Part shown: one piece after another, positions 21,420 to 58,293 of the stretch
Layout of the letters: every line of letters starts with the position of its first letter
How positions within the stretch are numbered: the stretch's first letter is position 1
Assembly (NCBI GenBank): GCA_976551045.1
Contig: CDPCPM010000007.1
Location: 15,500,001-15,564,000 of the forward strand
Direction of reading: 5' to 3'
DNA from: Glaucostegus cemiculus
Taxonomy: Eukaryota
Length of the DNA: 64,000 nt
Made by a program: the position numbers and the translations under genes
The notes under the pieces: generated by a model
The model's database searches: none
Told to the model about the DNA's origin: nothing
Seen by the model: the letters and a program-made list of their open reading frames with translations, nothing else

Positions 21420-23480
21420 GGCTGCACTTGGAGTATTGTGTGCAGTTCTAGTTGCCCCATTATAGGAAGGATGTGGAGGCTTTGGTGAGGGTGTAGAAGA
21501 GGTTTACCAGATGCTGCCTGGATTAGAGGGTATTAGCTAAAAGGAGAAGTTGGACAAACAATAGAACAATAGAACAATACAGCACAGAACAGGCCCTTCA
21601 GCCCATCAAGCTGTGCCATCCTACAAACATCTCCCAACTAACTCTTTCCACCCTCATATCCTACTATTCCACATTCTTCCATGTGCTTATCTAACAATCT
21701 CTTAAACCTGTCCAACGTATCTGCCTCCACTACCACCCCAGGCAGTGCATTCCATGCACCAACCACTCTCTGGGTGAAAAACTTCCCTCTGACATCTCCC
21801 CTATACTTTCCACCTATTATCTTAAAGGCATGCCCTCTCGTCTTGAGCATCTGCGCTCTGGGAAAGAGGCGCTGACTATTAACTCTATCTATTCCTCTCA
21901 ATATCTTAAACACCTCTATCAAGTCCCCTCTCATCCTCCTCCTCTCTAATGAGTAGAGCCCTAGCACCTTAAGCCTCTCTTTATATTCCATACCCTCCAA
22001 TCCAGGCATCATCCTGGTAAAACGCCTCTGCACCCTCTCCAACGCCTCCACATCCTTCCTATAATGCGGCGACCAAAACTGAACACAATATTCCAAGTGC
22101 GGCCTAACTAGAGTTTTGTAAAGCAGCATCATCACCTCTCTGCTCTTGAACTCAATCCCTTTATTTATAAAAGCCAACATCCCATAAGCCTTCTTAACAG
22201 CCCTATCCACCTGCGAGGCAACTTTGAGTGAACTGTGGATATGAACCCCCAGATCCCTCTGCTCCTCTACACTGCCAAGAACCTTACCATTTACCTTATA
22301 CTCTGTCCTGGAGTTTGTCCTCCCAAAGTGCACCACCTCACACTTCTCCGGATTAAACTCCATCTGCCACCTGTCAGCCCATTTCTGCATCCTATCAATA
22401 TCCCCCTGTAAGCTCCTACAGTCCTCCACACTATCAACCACACCACCGATCTTGGTGTCATCTGCAAACTTACCAACCCATCCCGCCACTCCTTCATCCA
22501 AATCATCGATGAACATAACAAAGAGTAGAGGCCCCAGAACCGATCCCTGCGGGACTCCACTAGTCACAGCCCTCCAATCCGAGGGCACTCCCTCCACCAT
22601 AACCCTCTGCCTTCTACAGGAAAGCCAATTTCTTATCCACACAGCCAACCTCCCCTGGATACCTCGACCTCTGACCTTCTGAAGAAGCCTGCCATGAGGA
22701 ACCTTATCGAACGCCTTACTAAAATCCATATACACTACATCCACCGCCCTGCCTTCATCAAGCTTCCTCGTCACCTCCTCAAAGAATTCTATCAGGCTCG
22801 TGAGGCAAGATCTTCCCTTCACAAAGCCATGCTGACTGTCCCTAATCAGTCCATGACTCTCCAAGTGCTCATAGATCCTGTCCCTCAAAATCCTTTCCAA
22901 CAGCTTACCTACCACAGACGTGAGGCTCACCGGTCTGTAATTTCCTGGACTATCTCTACTGCCCTTCTTAAACAAGGGAACAAAATCCGCTACTCGCCAA
23001 TCCTCCGGCACCATCCCCGTGGACAACGAGGACTCAAAGATCCTCACCAGCGGATCAACAATCTCCTCCCTCGCCTCCCAAACTTGGATTGTTTTCTCTG
23101 GAGCATCAAAGGCTGAGGGGAGACCTAATAGAAGTTTATAAAATTATGAGAAGCATAGATAAGTAGACAGCCAGAATCTTTTTCCCAGCATAGAAATATC
23201 GAATACTAGAGGGCATAGCTTTAAGGTGAGAGGGGGAAAGTTTAAAGTGGATGTGTGGGGCAAGTTTTTTTACACAGAGAGTGGTAGGTGTCTGGAATGT
23301 GCTACCAGGGGTGGTAGTGGAAGCAGATATAATAGTGGCATTCAAGAGACTTTTAGGTAGGCACATGAATATGCAGGGAATCAATGTCAGGCAGGAGCAA
23401 TTAGTGTAATTTGCTGTTATGCTTGGCATAGACATGGTGCGCTGAAGGGCCTGTTCCTTTGCTGTACTGTTGTATATTCT
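21420..23480 (+). mobile_element. Older CR1 3' fragment split by the young CR1 insertion
   Basis: HLEYCVQF-coding segment at 21420-21559 resumes at 23080 (AAACTTGGATTGTTTTCTCTGGAG) and ends in a CR1 3' end near 23445-23480. Confidence 0.9.
21560..23079 (-). mobile_element. 5'-truncated young CR1 copy (RT plus 3' end), same family as 54684-58293
   Basis: ORF 21638-23047 differs from the full copy at only 6 residues; same AACAATAG tail; CAAAC target-site duplication at 21555-21559 and 23079-23083; interrupts an older plus-strand CR1. Confidence 0.96.
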
Positions 23481-24914: not shown

Positions 24915-26372
24915 CAGCGGTATTCACAAAGAAAACGGACTTTGTAGTTGGAGAATTCAGTGAAGAGGAAGATGAAAGTCTAGTGCAAGTCTTTATAAAT
25001 AAAGAGGAGGTACCCAATGACTATGGGAGGCAAGGGAAGAGATTGTTGGGGCTCTAACTGAGATTTTTAAATCTTTGCTGGCCATAAGTGAGGTATCAGA
25101 TGACAGGAGGATGGAAAATGTGGTCCCCCTTTTCAAGAAGAGCAGCGGGGAAAAGCCTGGTAATTACAGACCAATGAGCCTAACATCAGCAGTAGGGAAG
25201 TTATTGGAAAAATTTCTGAGGGAAAAGACTAATGATCGCTTGGAAAGGCAGGGACTTACCAGAGACAGCCAACATGGCTTCGTCAAGACCAGATCTTATC
25301 TGACCAACCTGACTGAATTTTTTTGAGGAGTTAACAAAGTGTATTGATGAGGGCAGTGCAGTAGGTGTGGTGCACATGGACTTCAGCAAGGCCTTTGACA
25401 AGGTCCCACTTGGAAGACTGATCCAAAAGGTTAGAGCCCTTGGAATCCAGGGCAGGTTGGTAAATTGGATCCAAAGTGATGATAGAAAGTTGCTCCTGTG
25501 ATTGGGGTACCTGTGACTAGTGGTGTTCCACAGGAATGGAGAGTCTTAGGGTACAGGGTAATAGCAATGTGGTGGTGAAATGGGTTGAGAAATGGAGATG
25601 GAGTTTAATCCAGATAAATGTCAGGTGATGCATTTTGGGAGTAGTAATAAGGTTAGGACATACACCATGAGTGGTAGGGAGTACTGAGGAACAGAGGAAC
25701 CTTGGTGTACAAGTCCAAAGGTTCTTGAAGGTGGCAGCCCAGGTAGATGATGTAGTTAAGAAAGCACATGGGATACTGGCTTTCTTTAGTTGGAACAGTG
25801 AATACAAGAGCAGGGAGGTTATGCTCCAACTTTATAAAACATTGGTCAGACCTCAGCTGAAGTACTACATGTAGCTCTGGTCATGACACTATAGGAAGGA
25901 TGTGATAGCACTGGAGAGGGTGTAGAGGAGATTCATCAGGATGTTGGCTGGGAGGCAACATTTTAGTTATGAGGAGAGACTGGAGAGGCTAGGTCTGTTT
26001 TCCCTGGAGCACAGTAGGTTAAGAGGGAACATGACTGAGGTATATAAAATTATGAGGGGTATATGGAGGAAACTTTGTCCCAAATCAGAGGTAGATACAG
26101 TATAACCAGAGGACGTAGATTTCGGGATTTAGAGGTGATCTGAAGGGGGCCTTTTTCACCACAATCGTGGTAAGTACCTGGAATGCACTGCCAGAGAGAA
26201 TGGTGGAAGCAGGGTTGCTGACAGCATTTAAGGAATGTCTAGAAGAACACAAATTGCCTAGATATCAAAAGCTGTGGACCAAGTACTCAAGAATGGGATC
26301 AATACGGAAGGGTGCCTGGATGAGTTGGGCTGAATGGCCTATTTCCATGCATATGACTCCATGGCTTTAAGA
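24915..26372 (+). mobile_element. Decayed CR1 LINE (RT to 3' end) nested in the Gypsy element
   Basis: NVVPLFKK...PGNYRPMSLTS...DSQHGFVK (25075-25326); DFSKAFDKV; KSREVMLQLYKTLVRP; CR1 3' end near 26320-26370. Confidence 0.9.
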
Positions 26373-43698: not shown

Positions 43699-44816
43699 GA
43701 ATCAGAATCAGAATCAGTTTTATTGTCACAACCATATACATACATAATATGCATAGGAGCGAGATACCGTCCTCCTCAGGTGCTCGTCCCATTAAATAAC
43801 AACCAACAGAGACACACAGACACACTTAACAGAATAGACATTAAAAAACATTGAACATTAAAAACTACGGAAGTTACAATTAAATTAATACACAGATTAA
43901 ATTAAAAATGGCTGGTAAATAAATAAATAGTTATTAAAGTGAACGGGCTGGTGGCGGGCATTTAAAGTGCTGGTGCATTTCTGTGCACCTAGCATCTCTT
44001 AGTGTTAACAAGGAAGATGGAGGGATGAGAGAGTTTGCAGTTCTGATGGCTTGCGGAAAGAAGCTATTGTTCAGCCTGGTCGTTCTTGCCCTGATACATT
44101 TAAGCCTCCTCCCTGATGGCAAAATTGTAAAGAGGTGATGGGAGGGGTGAGAAGGGTCGGCCATTATGCTTTTGGTCTTCCTCACACAACGGTCTTTGTA
44201 TATGTCTGCGAGGGATGGAAGCGAGACACCTATGATCCTCTCCACAGCCCTAACTATCCTCTGGAGGGACTTCCGCCCAGCAGCTGAGCAGCTTCCAAAC
44301 CAAACAGTGATACTTTGGGTTAGGATGCTCTCAATGGTCCCTCTATAGAAGGATTTCATGACGGAGGGATGGGAGTTCGCTTTCCTCAGTCTCCGCAGGA
44401 AGTAGAGGCGTTTCTGAGCTTTCTTCGTGAGGGCCGTAATGTTAGTGGACCAGGTCAGGTTGTCGGTGATGTGCACCCCCAGGAACTTGGTGCTGCGTAC
44501 TTGTTCCACAGCAGACCCGTTGATGGTCAGCGGGGCGTGCACACGGTGACTCCTCCTAAAATCCACTATCATCTCCTTGGTTTTATCCACATTCAAGGAG
44601 AGGTTGTGTCATAGCACCACACGGCTAGTTGTTTCACCTCCTCTCTGTAGTCCGACTCATCGTCACCCGTGACAAGACCCACCACTGTCGTATCATCGGC
44701 AAATTTGATAATGCGGTTGGAGCTGGATCTGGCCTCACAGTCGTGAGTCAACAAGGTGAACAGGAGCGGACTGAGCACACAACCCTGTGGGGAGCCAGTA
44801 CTCAGTGTGATGGTGC
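43699..44816 (-). mobile_element. Young 5'-truncated Rex1/Babar LINE (RT C-terminal half), one frameshift
   Basis: TGSPQGCVLSPLLF, KFADDTTVVGL, then NVDKTKEMIVDFRR, FLGVHI, AQKRLYFLRRL; apparent 1-bp deletion near 44605-44610; (TTCTGA)n tail at 43699-43717. Confidence 0.93.
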
Positions 44817-45354
44817 TTAAGTAAGTTAAGTTAAGGAGTAATGTCTCCTTAAGTAAGTTAGGATTGAAATTCCTTGAAGCCTCATCCCATATTTGGTATG
44901 ATTTCAGTTTTGCTGCAGATTCACCCACCAAATGTACAGCCAGATACTGGTGGAAGTCCTGCAAGCATTCCACCCCAGCAATACACAAGATGCTGGAGGA
45001 ACTCAGTGGGTCAGGCAGCATCTATGGAGGGAAATGGACAGTCCATGTTTTGGGCCAAGACCCTTCATCTAGACCTTCATCCAACCCACTGTATTTAAAT
45101 CACCTTGTAAGTGGAGAGTAAAGGGTCCTTTGATCTATCCTTATTTGATCTTTTTGACATTAATGTATCACAGCAGAAGCAATTGGAAATGTGCAGTCTT
45201 TAATGGCAATGAGGCCGTGTGACTTCTTTAAAACTCAGGAGAGTACAATCTGGTTCAAATGAATAGTCTTAATCTGAAATGTCGACTGTCCATTTCCCTA
45301 CACAGAAGCTGCCTGACTCGCTGAGTTCCTCCAGCAATTTGTTTTTTTCTCCTC

Positions 45355-53345: not shown

Positions 53346-54772
53346 ATGGGGAGCAGTGTGTGCAGAGCATTACACTGAGTGCAGAATATAAGAGATAATT
53401 ACACTGAAGGCAGTATATTGTGTAGTAATGGGGACATTATAGAGAGCGTTCTGAATGTGTAACTCAGAGAGGACAAACTATGAAGGGCGTAACACTGACA
53501 ACAGACAGAATGGATGGCCAGCTTGCTAATGTATAAGGTTTGATATAAGGCACCTTGCAGAGTACACAGATGTGGTCTGTGACTGGACAGCCTAAGAATG
53601 GCAGCTCTTGGCATGCACAATGAGATGCCTGAGGCAATTTTCAGGCCTGCCTGAATGCCTGCGTGAAACATCAGAGGATTGAAGGGAATTCAGGTGCTAT
53701 TTCGCACACACCTTTGTGCAGAGTTCAGAACCCATCCTGTCTGGTGTGGAAGAGGTGACCAGGCCCAGTTCAAAACTAGGCAACACAGCAAGGTACATCG
53801 TCTAATGGTTGAGATCTCAGCTTCTTCATTGTGATGCTGGTGGGTGTTACCTGATGCCTGAGTTCAGCGATGGAAGTTCAGATATCTGCCAAGCAAGCTT
53901 GAGATTGCTTACTTAGACATTTACAATCTCCTTCATTGCAAGTAAGCAGATTGGCTGAAGCCACTGAAGGGGCATTGCCTCAACCCAGTAGGGCAGGTGA
54001 ATACAAGTGAATGACAGGCACTGTGGCATGCACCATGTCTTGATTGGTGTATAAATATAGTGTGGAATGATAAATTGGATTGTTCTGGTCTTCAAAAAAT
54101 ATGTTCACGTGGACACATAAAATGATCAATAATGAAGGCAGCACCCTCTTTGGAGTGTATTGGAGAGATTCCTCAGATCAGGGGTATGTGCAACGACTGG
54201 TCTGAGAGTAACCCATTGGTCTGACATGATAAGAGTCACCAGAGCTCCCTAAGTGTACACTTCTCACCATCGTAGTCATCTGCCTAAAGTCACAGAGTAA
54301 ATGAATGCCCAGGAAATGAAGGAGCGTGTGGTTCCTGGTAAACCTAAACGAAATCCTATGGATACTGTAAATCTGACATAAAACCAGGAAATGTTGGAAA
54401 TAATCAGCAGATCAGGCAGCATCAGTGGGGAGGGAAAGAGCATTAACCTTTCATCAGAAATGGGACACAGGAGGAACCAATCAGCCCAGTCCATCCATGC
54501 CATTTGGAAGGAGCTTCACTGGAAGACACGGAATAACGTCAACAACCTTAACTGGTCCTTTTGAACCTCACAAAGGCCTTTGACTATCAGCTGATAGGGA
54601 CTCTGGAACATCCTTCTCATTTCTGGCTGCCTACTAAAATCTGACTCCATCTCGTGTCTGCTACATCGCAGTTTGCATCTTAAACAATAGAACAATAGAA
54701 CAATAGAACAATACAGCACAGAACAGGCCCTTCGGCCCATCAAGCTGTGCCATCCTACAAACATCTCCCAAA

Positions 54773-57700
54773 CTAACTCTTTCCACCCTCATATCCTACT
54801 ATTCCACATTCTTCCATGTGCTTATCTAACAATCTCTTAAACCTGTCCAACGTATCTACCTCCACTACCACCCCAGGCAGTGCATTCCATGCACCAACCA
54901 CTCTCTGGGTGAAAAACTTCCCTCTGACATCTCCCCTATACTTTTCACCTATTATCTTAAAGGAATGCCCTCTCGTCTTGAGCATCTGCGCTCTGGGAAA
55001 GAGGCGCTGACTATTAACTCTATCTATTCCTCTCAATATCTTAAACACCTCTATCAAGTCCCCTCTCATCCTCCTCCTCTCTAATGAGTAGAGCCCTAAC
55101 ACCTTAAGCCTCTCTTTATATTCCATACCCTCCAATCCAGGCATCATCCTGGTAAAACGCCTCTGCACCCTCTCCAACGCCTCCACATCCTTCCTATAAT
55201 GCGGCGACCAAAACTGAACACAATATTCCAAGTGCGGCCTAACTAGAGTTTTGTAAAGCAGCATCATCACCTCTCTGCTCTTGAACTCAATCCCTTTATT
55301 TATAAAAGCCAACATCCCATAAGCCTTCTTAACAGCCCTATCCACCTGCGAGGCAACTTTGAGCGAACTGTGGATATGAACCCCCAGATCCCTCTGCTCC
55401 TCTACACTGCCAAGAACCTTACCATTTACCTTATACTCTGTCCTGGAGTTTGTCCTCCCAAAGTGCACCACCTCACACTTCTCCGGATTAAACTCCATCT
55501 GCCACCTATCAGCCCATTTCTGCATCCTATCAATATCCCCCTGTAAGCTCCTACAGTCCTCCACACTATCTACCACACCACCGATCTTGGTGTCATCTGC
55601 AAACTTACCAACCCATCCCTCCACTCCTTCATCCAAATCATCTATGAATATAACAAAGAGTAGAGGCCCCAGAACCGATCCCTGCGGGACTCCACTAGTC
55701 ACAGCCCTCCAATCCGAGGGCACTCCCTCCACCATAACCCTCTGCCTTCTACAGGAAAGCCAATTTCTTATCCACACAGCCAACCTCCCCTGGATACCTC
55801 GACCTCTGACCTTCTGAAGAAGCCTGCCATGAGGAACCTTATCGAACGCCTTACTAAAATCCATATACACTACATCCACCGCCCTGCCCTCATCGAGCTT
55901 CCTCGTCACCTCCTCAAAGAACTCTATCAGGCTAGTGAGGCAAGATCTTCCCTTCACAAAGCCATGCTGACTGTCCCTAATCAGTCCATGACTCTCCAAG
56001 TGCTCATAGATCCTGTCCCTCAAAATCCTTTCCAACAGCTTACCTACCACAGACGTGAGGCTCACCGGTCTGTAATTTCCCGGACTATCTCTACTGCCCT
56101 TCTTAAACAAGGGAACAATATCCGCTACCCGCCAATCCTCCGGCACCATCCCCGTGGACAACGAGGACTCAAAGATCCTCACCAGCGGATCAACAATCTC
56201 CTCCCTCGCCTCCCGAAGCAGCCTGGGGAATATTCCATCGGGCCCCGGAGACTTATCAGTCTTGATACTACTTAACAATTTCATCACCTCCTCCCTCTCT
56301 ATAGCTACATACTCAAGAATATTACCCTTGTCAGCACTCACCATCACATCATCAAGGCCCCTCTCCTTGGTGAATACAGAGGAGAAGTATTCATTAAGTA
56401 CCTCCCCTACCTCTGCCACCTCCAGGCACATCCTCCCACCTTTGTCCTTAATAGGCCCTACCTTTACCCTAGTCATCCTTCTGCCCTTCACATAAGAGAA
56501 AAAAGCCTTGGGATTTTCCTTAACCCTACGAGCCAACATCTTTTCATGTCCCCTTCTAGCTCTCCTCAGCTCTTTCTTAAGTTCCCTTCTCACTATACTA
56601 TACTCCTCACGGGCCACATCAGAGCCTTGCCGCTTACACCTTACGTAAGCCTCCTTCTTCCTCCTAACCAGTCTTTCTACCTCTCTTGTCACCCACGGTT
56701 CCTTCACTATTCCATTCTTCCTCCGTCTTGCCGGAACATATCTGTCCCCAACATCCTGTAAAACATCCCTGAACAACGTCCACATCTCTACAGTACACAT
56801 CCCCTCAAAAAGGACTTCCCAATTTACACTCCCAAGCTCTTTCCTTATAGCCTCATAGTCTGCCCTACCCCAATTGAATATCTTCCTACGCTCCCTGCAC
56901 TTATGCCTGTCCATGACAATTCTAAAGCTTATCGAGGAATGATCACTGTCTCCCAGAGGCTCACCCACTAGTAGATCTCTCACCTGTCCCGGTTCATTTC
57001 CTAAGACCAGATCCAACACAGCATTCCCTCTAGTCGGTTTGTCAACATACTGCTCCAGAAATCCATCCTGGACACACTTAACAAACTCATTCCCATCCAA
57101 ACCTCTGGCACTGAGCATGTCCCAGTCTATATTCGGGAAGTTGAAATCACCCATTATTACAACCCTATTATCTTTGCTTCTGTCCAAGCACTGCCTGCCA
57201 ATCTGCTCCTCTATATCCCTACTGCTACCTGGGGGCCTATAGTATACTCCCAGCAGCGTAACCACACTTTTCCTATTCCTCACTTCCACCCACACCGACT
57301 CGAAAGAGGATCCTTCCGCAAACTCAGCCCTTTCCGCAGCCGTAACATCATCTCTGACCAATATCGCCACCCCTCCTCCTCTTCTCCCCCCCTCCCTATC
57401 TTTTTTAAAACACTGAAAACCAGGAATGTTCAATACCCACTCCTGCCCTGACGACAGCCACGTCTCAGTTATGGCTACAATATCATAATCCCCCATACCT
57501 ATCCAAGCCCTCAATTCATCACCCTTATTCCTAACACTTCTCGCATTAAAGTAAACACACTTTAACCCATCCAATTTAACCCTTTTATAGCCCTCATCCT
57601 GCCTCTCTCTCCCCAAAGCCTCATCCCCTGCTCGATGCAACTCATCTCCATCTTCAGTACACGTCGACGTGATCCTGCATACCTCCTCCTTTAAGCCATG

Positions 57701-57874
57701 TTGGTTTCCCTTGCCTTGCCTGTTTAGTTTATCCACCTTTTTACTATTACTGCCTGTACACTGCTTCTCCTTCCTCAAAGCAACTCCATTTGTCAGATCT
57801 GCCTTTTCTGTAATCCCTACATCCTCTGACCAGCCCTCCTGGTTCCCAACCCCCATCTCAACTAGTTTAAACAC
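54773..57874 (-). CDS. CR1 ORF2: apurinic-like endonuclease plus reverse transcriptase, intact (1033 codons; first ATG at 57856)
   Basis: APE motifs FNARS, ITETW, GVYYRPP, MGDFN, LDLVL, SDH; RT motifs YRPVSLTS, DFSKAFD, GVPQGSVLGP, FADD; CR1-type C-terminus RPHLEYCVQFWSP...TRGH; no stops or frameshifts. Confidence 0.97.
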   Translation of the reverse strand: MFKLVEMGVGNQEGWSEDVGITEKADLTNGVALRKEKQCTGSNSKKVDKLNRQGKGNQHGLKEEVCRITSTCTEDGDELHRAGDEALGRERQDEGYKRVKLDGLKCVYFNARSVRNKGDELRAWIGMGDYDIVAITETWLSSGQEWVLNIPGFQCFKKDREGGRRGGGVAILVRDDVTAAERAEFAEGSSFESVWVEVRNRKSVVTLLGVYYRPPGSSRDIEEQIGRQCLDRSKDNRVVIMGDFNFPNIDWDMLSARGLDGNEFVKCVQDGFLEQYVDKPTRGNAVLDLVLGNEPGQVRDLLVGEPLGDSDHSSISFRIVMDRHKCRERRKIFNWGRADYEAIRKELGSVNWEVLFEGMCTVEMWTLFRDVLQDVGDRYVPARRRKNGIVKEPWVTREVERLVRRKKEAYVRCKRQGSDVAREEYSIVRRELKKELRRARRGHEKMLARRVKENPKAFFSYVKGRRMTRVKVGPIKDKGGRMCLEVAEVGEVLNEYFSSVFTKERGLDDVMVSADKGNILEYVAIEREEVMKLLSSIKTDKSPGPDGIFPRLLREAREEIVDPLVRIFESSLSTGMVPEDWRVADIVPLFKKGSRDSPGNYRPVSLTSVVGKLLERILRDRIYEHLESHGLIRDSQHGFVKGRSCLTSLIEFFEEVTRKLDEGRAVDVVYMDFSKAFDKVPHGRLLQKVRGRGIQGRLAVWIRNWLSCRRQRVMVEGVPSDWRAVTSGVPQGSVLGPLLFVIFIDDLDEGVEGWVGKFADDTKIGGVVDSVEDCRSLQGDIDRMQKWADRWQMEFNPEKCEVVHFGRTNSRTEYKVNGKVLGSVEEQRDLGVHIHSSLKVASQVDRAVKKAYGMLAFINKGIEFKSREVMMLLYKTLVRPHLEYCVQFWSPHYRKDVEALERVQRRFTRMMPGLEGMEYKERLKVLGLYSLERRRMRGDLIEVFKILRGIDRVNSQRLFPRAQMLKTRGHSFKIIGEKYRGDVRGKFFTQRVVGAWNALPGVVVEVDTLDRFKRLLDKHMEECGIVGYEGGKS

Positions 57875-58293
57875 TCATCAACCACCCAAGCATAACGTGT
57901 TGCCAGGATATTTGCCCCCCACCGGTTGGGGTGTAACCCGTCCTCTCTGTACAGGTTCCACCTTCCCCAGAATAGATCCCAATTATCCAAAAATCTAAAT
58001 CCCTCTGCCCTGCACCACTCTCTCAGCCACGTATTTAACTGCCTCCTCTCCCTGTTCCTAACTTCCCTATCACGTGGCACCGGGAGTAATCCAGAGATTA
58101 CTACCCTTGAGGTCCTGGTCTTCAGCTTTCTGCCTAGCTCCCTGAACTCCCCTTGCAGGACCTCATCCCTCTTTCTACCTATGTCGTTGGTACCAACATG
58201 AACCACGACTACTGGCTGCTCTCCCTCCCGATTGAGAATCCGGGGAACCCGATCAGTAATATCCTGGACCCTGGCACCAGGGAGGCAACATAC
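57862..58293 (-). CDS. CR1 ORF1 C-terminal part, SGNH/GDSL esterase domain (5'-truncated)
   Basis: CCLPGARV (block II), VHVGTND (block III), DGLHPN (block V). The block I GDS motif is lost by truncation. The ORF-track N-terminus beyond 58293 is read-through into flanking RTE DNA. Confidence 0.92.
   Translation of the reverse strand, partial: VCCLPGARVQDITDRVPRILNREGEQPVVVVHVGTNDIGRKRDEVLQGEFRELGRKLKTRTSRVVISGLLPVPRDREVRNRERRQLNTWLREWCRAEGFRFLDNWDLFWGRWNLYREDGLHPNRWGANILATRYAWVVDECLN

Follow-up and report, generated by a model that had tools for sequence, protein, structure and literature searches.

How does the ribosome reach the second open reading frame of a CR1 element? The translation of LINE ORF2 is a long-open question that has been answered for few elements only, and it is raised for CR1, the dominant retrotransposon of most vertebrates according to the available part of PMC13343379, by a junction within a 64,000-nucleotide stretch of the Glaucostegus cemiculus genome (contig CDPCPM010000007.1, positions 15,500,001 to 15,564,000), which as a whole we call the window. 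The original prediction was that, on the minus strand, a T TTA AAC heptamer sits in the X XXY YYZ phase directly ahead of the ORF1 stop codon and that a -1 slip on it would lead into ORF2. Both statements are confirmed at the sequence level: ORF1 ends in ...GAT GAG TGT TTA AAC TAG with the heptamer at 57871-57865 in that phase, and the frame that such a slip would enter stays open from 57874 to 54773 and encodes an endonuclease and a reverse transcriptase (Table 1).

Table 1. Parts of the CR1 junction and of the surrounding element, numbered by window position
Feature	Position	Strand	Basis or remark
Slippery heptamer T TTA AAC, the final two ORF1 codons	57865..57871	-	Sequence and conservation across clusters
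ORF1 stop TAG, abutting the heptamer (TAA in some families)	57862..57864	-	Sequence
Two ORF2-frame stops, TGA TGA, two codons ahead of the heptamer	57875..57880	-	Sequence
In-frame ATG, 5 nt past the ORF1 stop; peculiar to the window's family	57854..57856	-	
G-tract G5-NN-G3, beginning 10 nt past the heptamer; conserved, candidate stimulator	57845..57854	-	
Linker ahead of the endonuclease, variable	57554..57864	-	Heptamer-to-motif distance 318 nt here
ORF1 3' part with SGNH/GDSL esterase domain, 5'-truncated at 58293	57862..58293	-	
ORF2 frame, 1033 codons	54773..57874	-	-1 frame relative to ORF1
APE endonuclease	about 57550-56939	-	Exo_endo_phos at ORF2 residues 109-312
Reverse transcriptase	about 56101-55406	-	RVT_1 at ORF2 residues 592-823
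3' tail, about 3.9 copies of an 8-nt repeat	54683..54713	-	Read from sequence

Judged by its domain content and its likeness to consensus rows labelled CR1, the element appears to be a vertebrate CR1 with an esterase ORF1. The SGNH esterase domain of ORF1 matches Lipase_GDSL_2 and the ZfL2-1 esterase (4C1B), ORF2 combines APE and reverse transcriptase domains, and the 3' end consists of 8-nt tandem repeats without poly(A). The copy in the window ends at 58293, without a promoter and without an ORF1 start, and our finding is therefore about the family rather than about this copy; ORF1 of full-length family copies elsewhere is 324 residues long. The family is very young, with 40 of 40 scored matches (out of 1238 candidates) identical over 351 nt. 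A second, shorter copy of it lies at window positions 21638-23143 on the minus strand and retains only the reverse transcriptase and C-terminal part; judged from translation, the window also holds another LINE reverse transcriptase fragment, of L2/Rex-like type (43934-45021, minus strand), and an older CR1 reverse transcriptase fragment (25021-25831, plus strand).

The ORF2 frame opens three codons ahead of the ORF1 stop. Because the two stop codons at 57880-57875 shut the -1 frame further upstream, the two reading frames overlap by just 13 nt, and with that frame shut two codons before the heptamer, entry from ORF1 into ORF2 is possible only there. Counting both strands, the window contains 15 TTTAAAC sites, and only the one at this junction is followed by TAR.

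We collected further CR1 copies of the genome with patterns drawn from the upstream esterase active-site motif, which are free of the heptamer and so avoid selecting for it. Three patterns gave 2184, 4 and 165 matches, of which 90, 4 and 30 were examined (for the 90, the first 30 in the list and, chosen for their diversity, 60 of the 70 that came next), and removal of one duplicate left 123 copies. The exact heptamer was present within a 55-nt window in 89 of these 123 decaying copies and in 4 of 1476 control windows; it stood at one fixed offset in 74 of the 123, and 74 of 87 sites were in the X XXY YYZ phase counted from the anchor. Some copies carry lesions at the junction, among them four of 30 copies of an old family, FB, with small deletions in the heptamer-stop region (L212, L215, L217 and L218) and one copy, L129, in which a tandem duplication doubles the heptamer-stop segment. 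A protein search of the genome with a turtle ORF1 as query returned nothing beyond the young family.

For the cluster comparison, 5 + 6 copies without a site within two substitutions, owing to deletions, breakpoints or decay, were set aside, and 24 relatives of one subfamily were added, which gave 26 clusters. All 26 share one majority base at each of the seven heptamer positions, and flanking positions agree in 35-96%, in a table that has a fuzzy motif match as its anchor and whose clusters, drawn from one genome, share ancestry and form no independent sample. In the 20 in-register clusters, TTA encodes the final Leu of ORF1 19 times; at three Leu positions further upstream TTA is used in 6, 0 and 0 of 20, and the backgrounds among Leu codons are 9/84 in ORF2 and 4/29 in ORF1. 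The codon just before the final Leu, always one of GGT, AGT, GAT and GCT, encodes any of four amino acids with T as third base in 20 of 20. The terminal Asn codon is AAC in all 20 clusters and does not discriminate, because an upstream Asn is equally AAC in 19 of 20. We conclude that the heptamer is conserved at synonymous positions, the Asn codon by itself being uninformative.

The phase of ORF2 relative to the heptamer is conserved as well. Among five large families the distance from the heptamer to the endonuclease motif is 156, 144, 204, 156 and 156 nt, always a multiple of three; the endonuclease is in the -1 phase in 5/5, and both other frames carry stops. The window's family has a distance of 318 nt; L031, a single distant locus from a metagenome scan with an ORF1 identity of only 36%, has one of 99 nt. 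Linker length thus varies threefold across families, so that the -1 phase has been kept despite changes of the linker, and upstream the -1 frame is shut within six codons of the heptamer in 21 of 26 clusters. Two candidate exceptions were dismissed. An apparently off-phase subfamily (7/7 copies) is explained by small indels, its 24 further relatives having a modal distance of 156 nt with 17 in phase; family FB, with 7 of 22 measurable copies in phase, gives 204 nt from its majority columns, and we ascribe its per-copy noise to the decay of the copies.

Start codons for ORF2 show no such constancy. In four of the five large families the first in-frame ATG is found at codon 85, 182, 186 and 186, beyond the endonuclease Asn (codons 51-55) and Glu (78-82). 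This Glu aligns with E43 of the L1 endonuclease, which we take to be a catalytic residue. In L031 the first Met likewise comes only after the endonuclease Asn. AUG-dependent reinitiation of the SART1/Zorro3 type calls for a conserved in-frame AUG close to or at the end of ORF1, and such an AUG is absent in the same 4/5 large families; SART1 reinitiates at UAAUG. The original prediction had held that, if the frameshift reading is right, the heptamer and the -1 phase should be kept across families and the downstream ATG should not, and at the sequence level this is what we observed.

These data bear directly on termination-reinitiation, by which ORF2 would be started at a nearby AUG or non-AUG codon after ORF1, with the heptamer aiding pausing or being incidental. 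The original prediction had named the ATG at 57856 as a reinitiation start; that codon is real, stands in good context and is carried by all 30 copies compared from the window's family, but it has no counterpart in four of the five large families. Family FB has in-frame ATGs at linker codons 16 and 52, a UAAUG overlap occurs in 3 of 17 junction rows in the part of the PMC13343379 supplement that holds them, and, in the available portions of PMC5009743 and PMC1965478, L1 provides a precedent for AUG-independent reinitiation. As L1 ORF2 tolerates loss of its AUG in those same portions, a missing ATG alone proves nothing. However, reinitiation leaves unexplained why the X XXY YYZ pattern is fixed at synonymous sites and why the -1 phase is constant; four of the five large families have no ATG ahead of the endonuclease Asn and Glu, L031 has none ahead of the Asn, and an ATG within the overlap is found in only 5 copies across all clusters. 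As a general account we consider it unlikely; in the window's family, with its ATG in good context, it is a possible second route that may coexist with frameshifting.

We extended the comparison to other species through the C-terminus of ORF1. A C-terminal Leu-Asn is found in 55 of 101 ORF1 homologs, the named sources including sharks, rays, coelacanth, a mormyrid fish, a frog and turtles, a range from chimaera to turtle. The residue before it takes 10 values, and a codon ending in T is possible for 54 of the 55, a share that drops to 25 of 55 at the position before. Among the best 150 matches of a profile search over 1.84 billion representatives, 99 have a usable tail; 48 of these, with tail lengths between 25 and 39 residues, end in Leu-Asn, and in a tree of the tails 31 of the 48 Leu-Asn proteins fall in one clade of 34. 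Three database proteins from indel-bearing copies read Phe-Lys-Leu at the junction. Longer fused proteins numbered two matches, one of them a natural in-frame fusion through an indel: P0102, a stingray gene model annotated as a hydroxyacid oxidase isoform, has ORF1 joined to the endonuclease because the run preceding the heptamer carries an indel. Two CR1 proteins, P0007 and P0094, are recorded as coming from a bacterium and a plant, probably through assembly contamination. In contigs of other genomes, relatives amounted to 8 loci with weak matches (E 2e-4 to 3e-11, 23-29% identity).

The frequency of the Leu-Asn end could also mean that selection acts on protein, Leu-Asn being a C-terminal signal of ORF1p and Phe-Lys-Leu the start of ORF2p, so that the DNA motif would follow from dual coding. 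Codons are indeed constrained where two frames overlap. Against this, L2-type fish esterases, including 4C1B with its solved structure, stop some two residues short of that point and lack Leu-Asn, the tail is variable in length, and Phe-Lys needs entry into the frame within six upstream codons, where there is mostly no start codon. We regard this protein-level reading as very improbable.

At the DNA level, the junction 10-mer was sought in the PMC13343379 supplement over the first 400 nt of each consensus. There are 20 matches in that portion. What looks like the junction accounts for 17 of them (halosaur, bowfin, bullfrog, coelacanth, alligator, crocodile, chimaera, sharks and rays), a 5' UTR for 2 and an L2 for 1; since the search was conditioned on the motif, no frequency follows from it. 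The two 5'-UTR rows are the dogfish elements SquAca_CR1-18 and SquAca_CR1-3, and none of 30 copies from the window's family has the 10-mer upstream. The accessible part of the PMC4316615 supplement was searched with the motif, and the junction was absent among the 4 matches listed.

An occurrence in a 5' UTR is what one might expect if the motif served as some other RNA or DNA signal, either a splice acceptor in a spliced RNA for ORF2 or a site of polymerase slippage. CTAG resembles an acceptor and RefSeq models splice into CR1 ORF1, but the AG is missing wherever the ORF1 stop is TAA rather than TAG (5 of 26 clusters, and 22 of 28 copies in one sample), and the sequence upstream is purine-rich. 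For polymerase slippage, runs of three bases are short. Two contig sets yielded no information on expression or splicing. Such a signal is, in our judgement, just as improbable as the protein-level reading, and both fit worse than frameshifting or reinitiation.

The junction feature is real and deeply conserved. From the conserved heptamer, the -1 position of ORF2 and the frequent lack of a usable start codon, it follows that the reverse transcriptase is likely made by slippage. We hypothesize, at a probability of roughly 0.78, that the CR1 junction is a programmed -1 frameshift site yielding an ORF1-ORF2 fusion. The retrovirus-like fusion suggested by the original prediction thus gains support from a heptamer and a -1 phase that are conserved where the ATG is not. 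Most ribosomes would halt at the adjacent stop and release the 324-residue ORF1p; in a minority, tRNA-Leu and tRNA-Asn on UUA AAC would re-pair on UUU AAA and continue in the -1 frame, giving a predicted fusion of 1354 residues with the order esterase, linker, endonuclease and reverse transcriptase. On U UUA AAC the slip would most likely be of the tandem -1 kind, two slipping tRNAs being favoured over one because the first three U are invariant. Slippage of this kind would fix the ratio of ORF1p to ORF2p, as it does for Gag and Gag-Pol.

What might stimulate such a slip? A downstream stimulator, built from a G-rich stretch and small stems, had been part of the original prediction; the G-richness is real and fixed in place, but the stems, although they can be drawn, are weak and not conserved. 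G occupies position +17 in 25 of 26 clusters and +19 in 26 of 26, in a tract that starts 10 nt past the heptamer. Position +17 is a third codon position whose codons stand for eight different amino acids or come from more than one codon family; the Gly codon that follows is GGG in 19 of 23 cases, compared with 14 of 45 in linkers. By eye, L031 shows the same spacing of the tract, as do at least 6 of the 17 consensus rows in the accessible part of that supplement. A short conserved motif at a fixed spacing of about 10 nt is therefore present, and it is G-rich, not C-rich. The G4Hunter score at the G-tract of the window copy is 1.64, in the top 0.5% of the element; family medians spread from 0.76 to 2.48, for which reason we consider a G-quadruplex possible and nothing firmer.

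Folding gave little that is shared. In the window the folds are weak (z -0.06 to -1.69 in 5/5 folds), RNAalifold on 25 representatives returned 0 consensus pairs, and single-sequence folding gave a median z of 0.0, with values below -2 in 2 of 26. As for the two stems, GGTT/AACC is 65% paired, a level reached by 258 of 500 shuffles, and ACCAG/CTGGT is 57% paired, reached by 4 of 500, a weak signal that relatedness can produce. No long-range partner of the G-tract was shared across 15 loci, the best duplex sites differing between families. Folding and duplex tests, which did not include a dedicated pseudoknot search, thus revealed no conserved stem-loop or pseudoknot 5-9 nt downstream. A hairpin or pseudoknot as stimulator finds no support here, the conserved 3' element being the G-tract, and the stimulator is probably not a hairpin. 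The candidates are the G-tract, acting as a G-quadruplex or through a protein that binds it, and a slow release of ribosomes at the stop codon next to the heptamer.

Among more distant esterase ORF1 proteins the pattern may have been kept while the heptamer changed. Among 51 distinct tails that do not end in Leu-Asn, the final pair is Gly-Asn or Lys-Asn in 11, and 32 of the 51 have at positions 22-30 a tripeptide that X XXY YYZ could encode (shuffle mean 10.3, maximum 21 in 2000 shuffles), these being protein data only, from mutually related sequences. Tails in the series P0277-P0371 end in Gln-Gly-Asn or Ser-Lys-Asn, or have x-Lys-Asn or Phe-Phe at the junction position. It is as if the heptamer had been swapped to G GGA AAC or A AAA AAC, which we take as a lead; a search for DNA encoding the Gly-Asn and Lys-Asn proteins gave none useful in viral contigs and none in plasmids. 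More tentatively still, and with doubts that outweigh our confidence, we suggest that esterase-ORF1 CR1s of jawed vertebrates and their heptamer-swapping relatives (U UUA AAC, G GGA AAC, A AAA AAC) could all make a Gag-Pol-like reverse transcriptase fusion through the fixed G-tract, by a G-quadruplex or a bound protein and not by a hairpin. This would be the first natural frameshift stimulated by a G-tract and the first established in a vertebrate LINE.

We found no proposal of frameshifting for CR1 in the open literature covered, which took in the available parts of PMC2734521, PMC4255032, PMC11835228 and PMC11303007; the primary CR1 papers of 1997-2005 lay outside this scope and may hold an earlier remark. 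The portion of the frameshifting source PMC5009743 to which we had access contains 0 mentions of CR1. If the frameshift reading is true, CR1 ORF2p is a fusion that carries ORF1p, the frequent lack of a CR1 ORF2 start codon is explained, ORF2 annotation has to be corrected, and CR1 comes under the influence of the host factors that modulate -1 frameshifting. Stimulation that needs no hairpin would interest those who study recoding. The signal is short and lies in a young family with many identical copies.

In known systems, programmed -1 frameshifting at U_UUA_AAC operates in coronavirus 1a/1b and at retroviral gag-pol and pro-pol junctions; the heptamer is identical to that of CR1, and so is the arrangement of a structural ORF followed by an enzyme ORF in the -1 frame. 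In BLV pro-pol and RSV gag-pol a stop codon directly follows the heptamer. U UUA AAC is among the most slippery heptamers for mammalian ribosomes (PMC5009743, in the part available), and canonical signals have an RNA structure 5-9 nt downstream (PMC7618472, likewise in part). CR1 differs from the coronavirus and retroviral signals in having no conserved pseudoknot or stem-loop at that distance and in residing in a non-LTR retrotransposon. A short motif at a fixed 10-nt distance is what the CR1 G-tract shares with the protein-stimulated signals of PRRSV nsp2 (a C-rich motif with nsp1beta/PCBP) and of cardioviruses (2A), whose motif is 10 nt away according to the same portion of PMC7618472; the CR1 motif, however, is G-rich where that of PRRSV is C-rich, and is known here from sequence, any trans-acting factor being hypothetical. 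G-quadruplexes stimulate frameshifting in synthetic constructs, and natural use of them was described as not known in 2016, both according to the accessible text of PMC5009743. Canonical vertebrate CR1 of type IVB, as set out in the available parts of PMC4120745 and PMC13343379, has the same ORF1 with zinc finger/leucine zipper and esterase, the same APE-RT ORF2, the same 8-nt 3' repeats and the same 5' truncation; in those parts frameshifting goes unmentioned and ORF2 figures as an ORF of its own. Mammalian L1, finally, has a bicistronic LINE RNA like that of CR1, and its ORF2 output is independent of the ORF2 AUG in the portions of the L1 sources seen; the L1 ORFs, however, are separated by a spacer, whereas those of CR1 overlap by a few codons at the slippery site.
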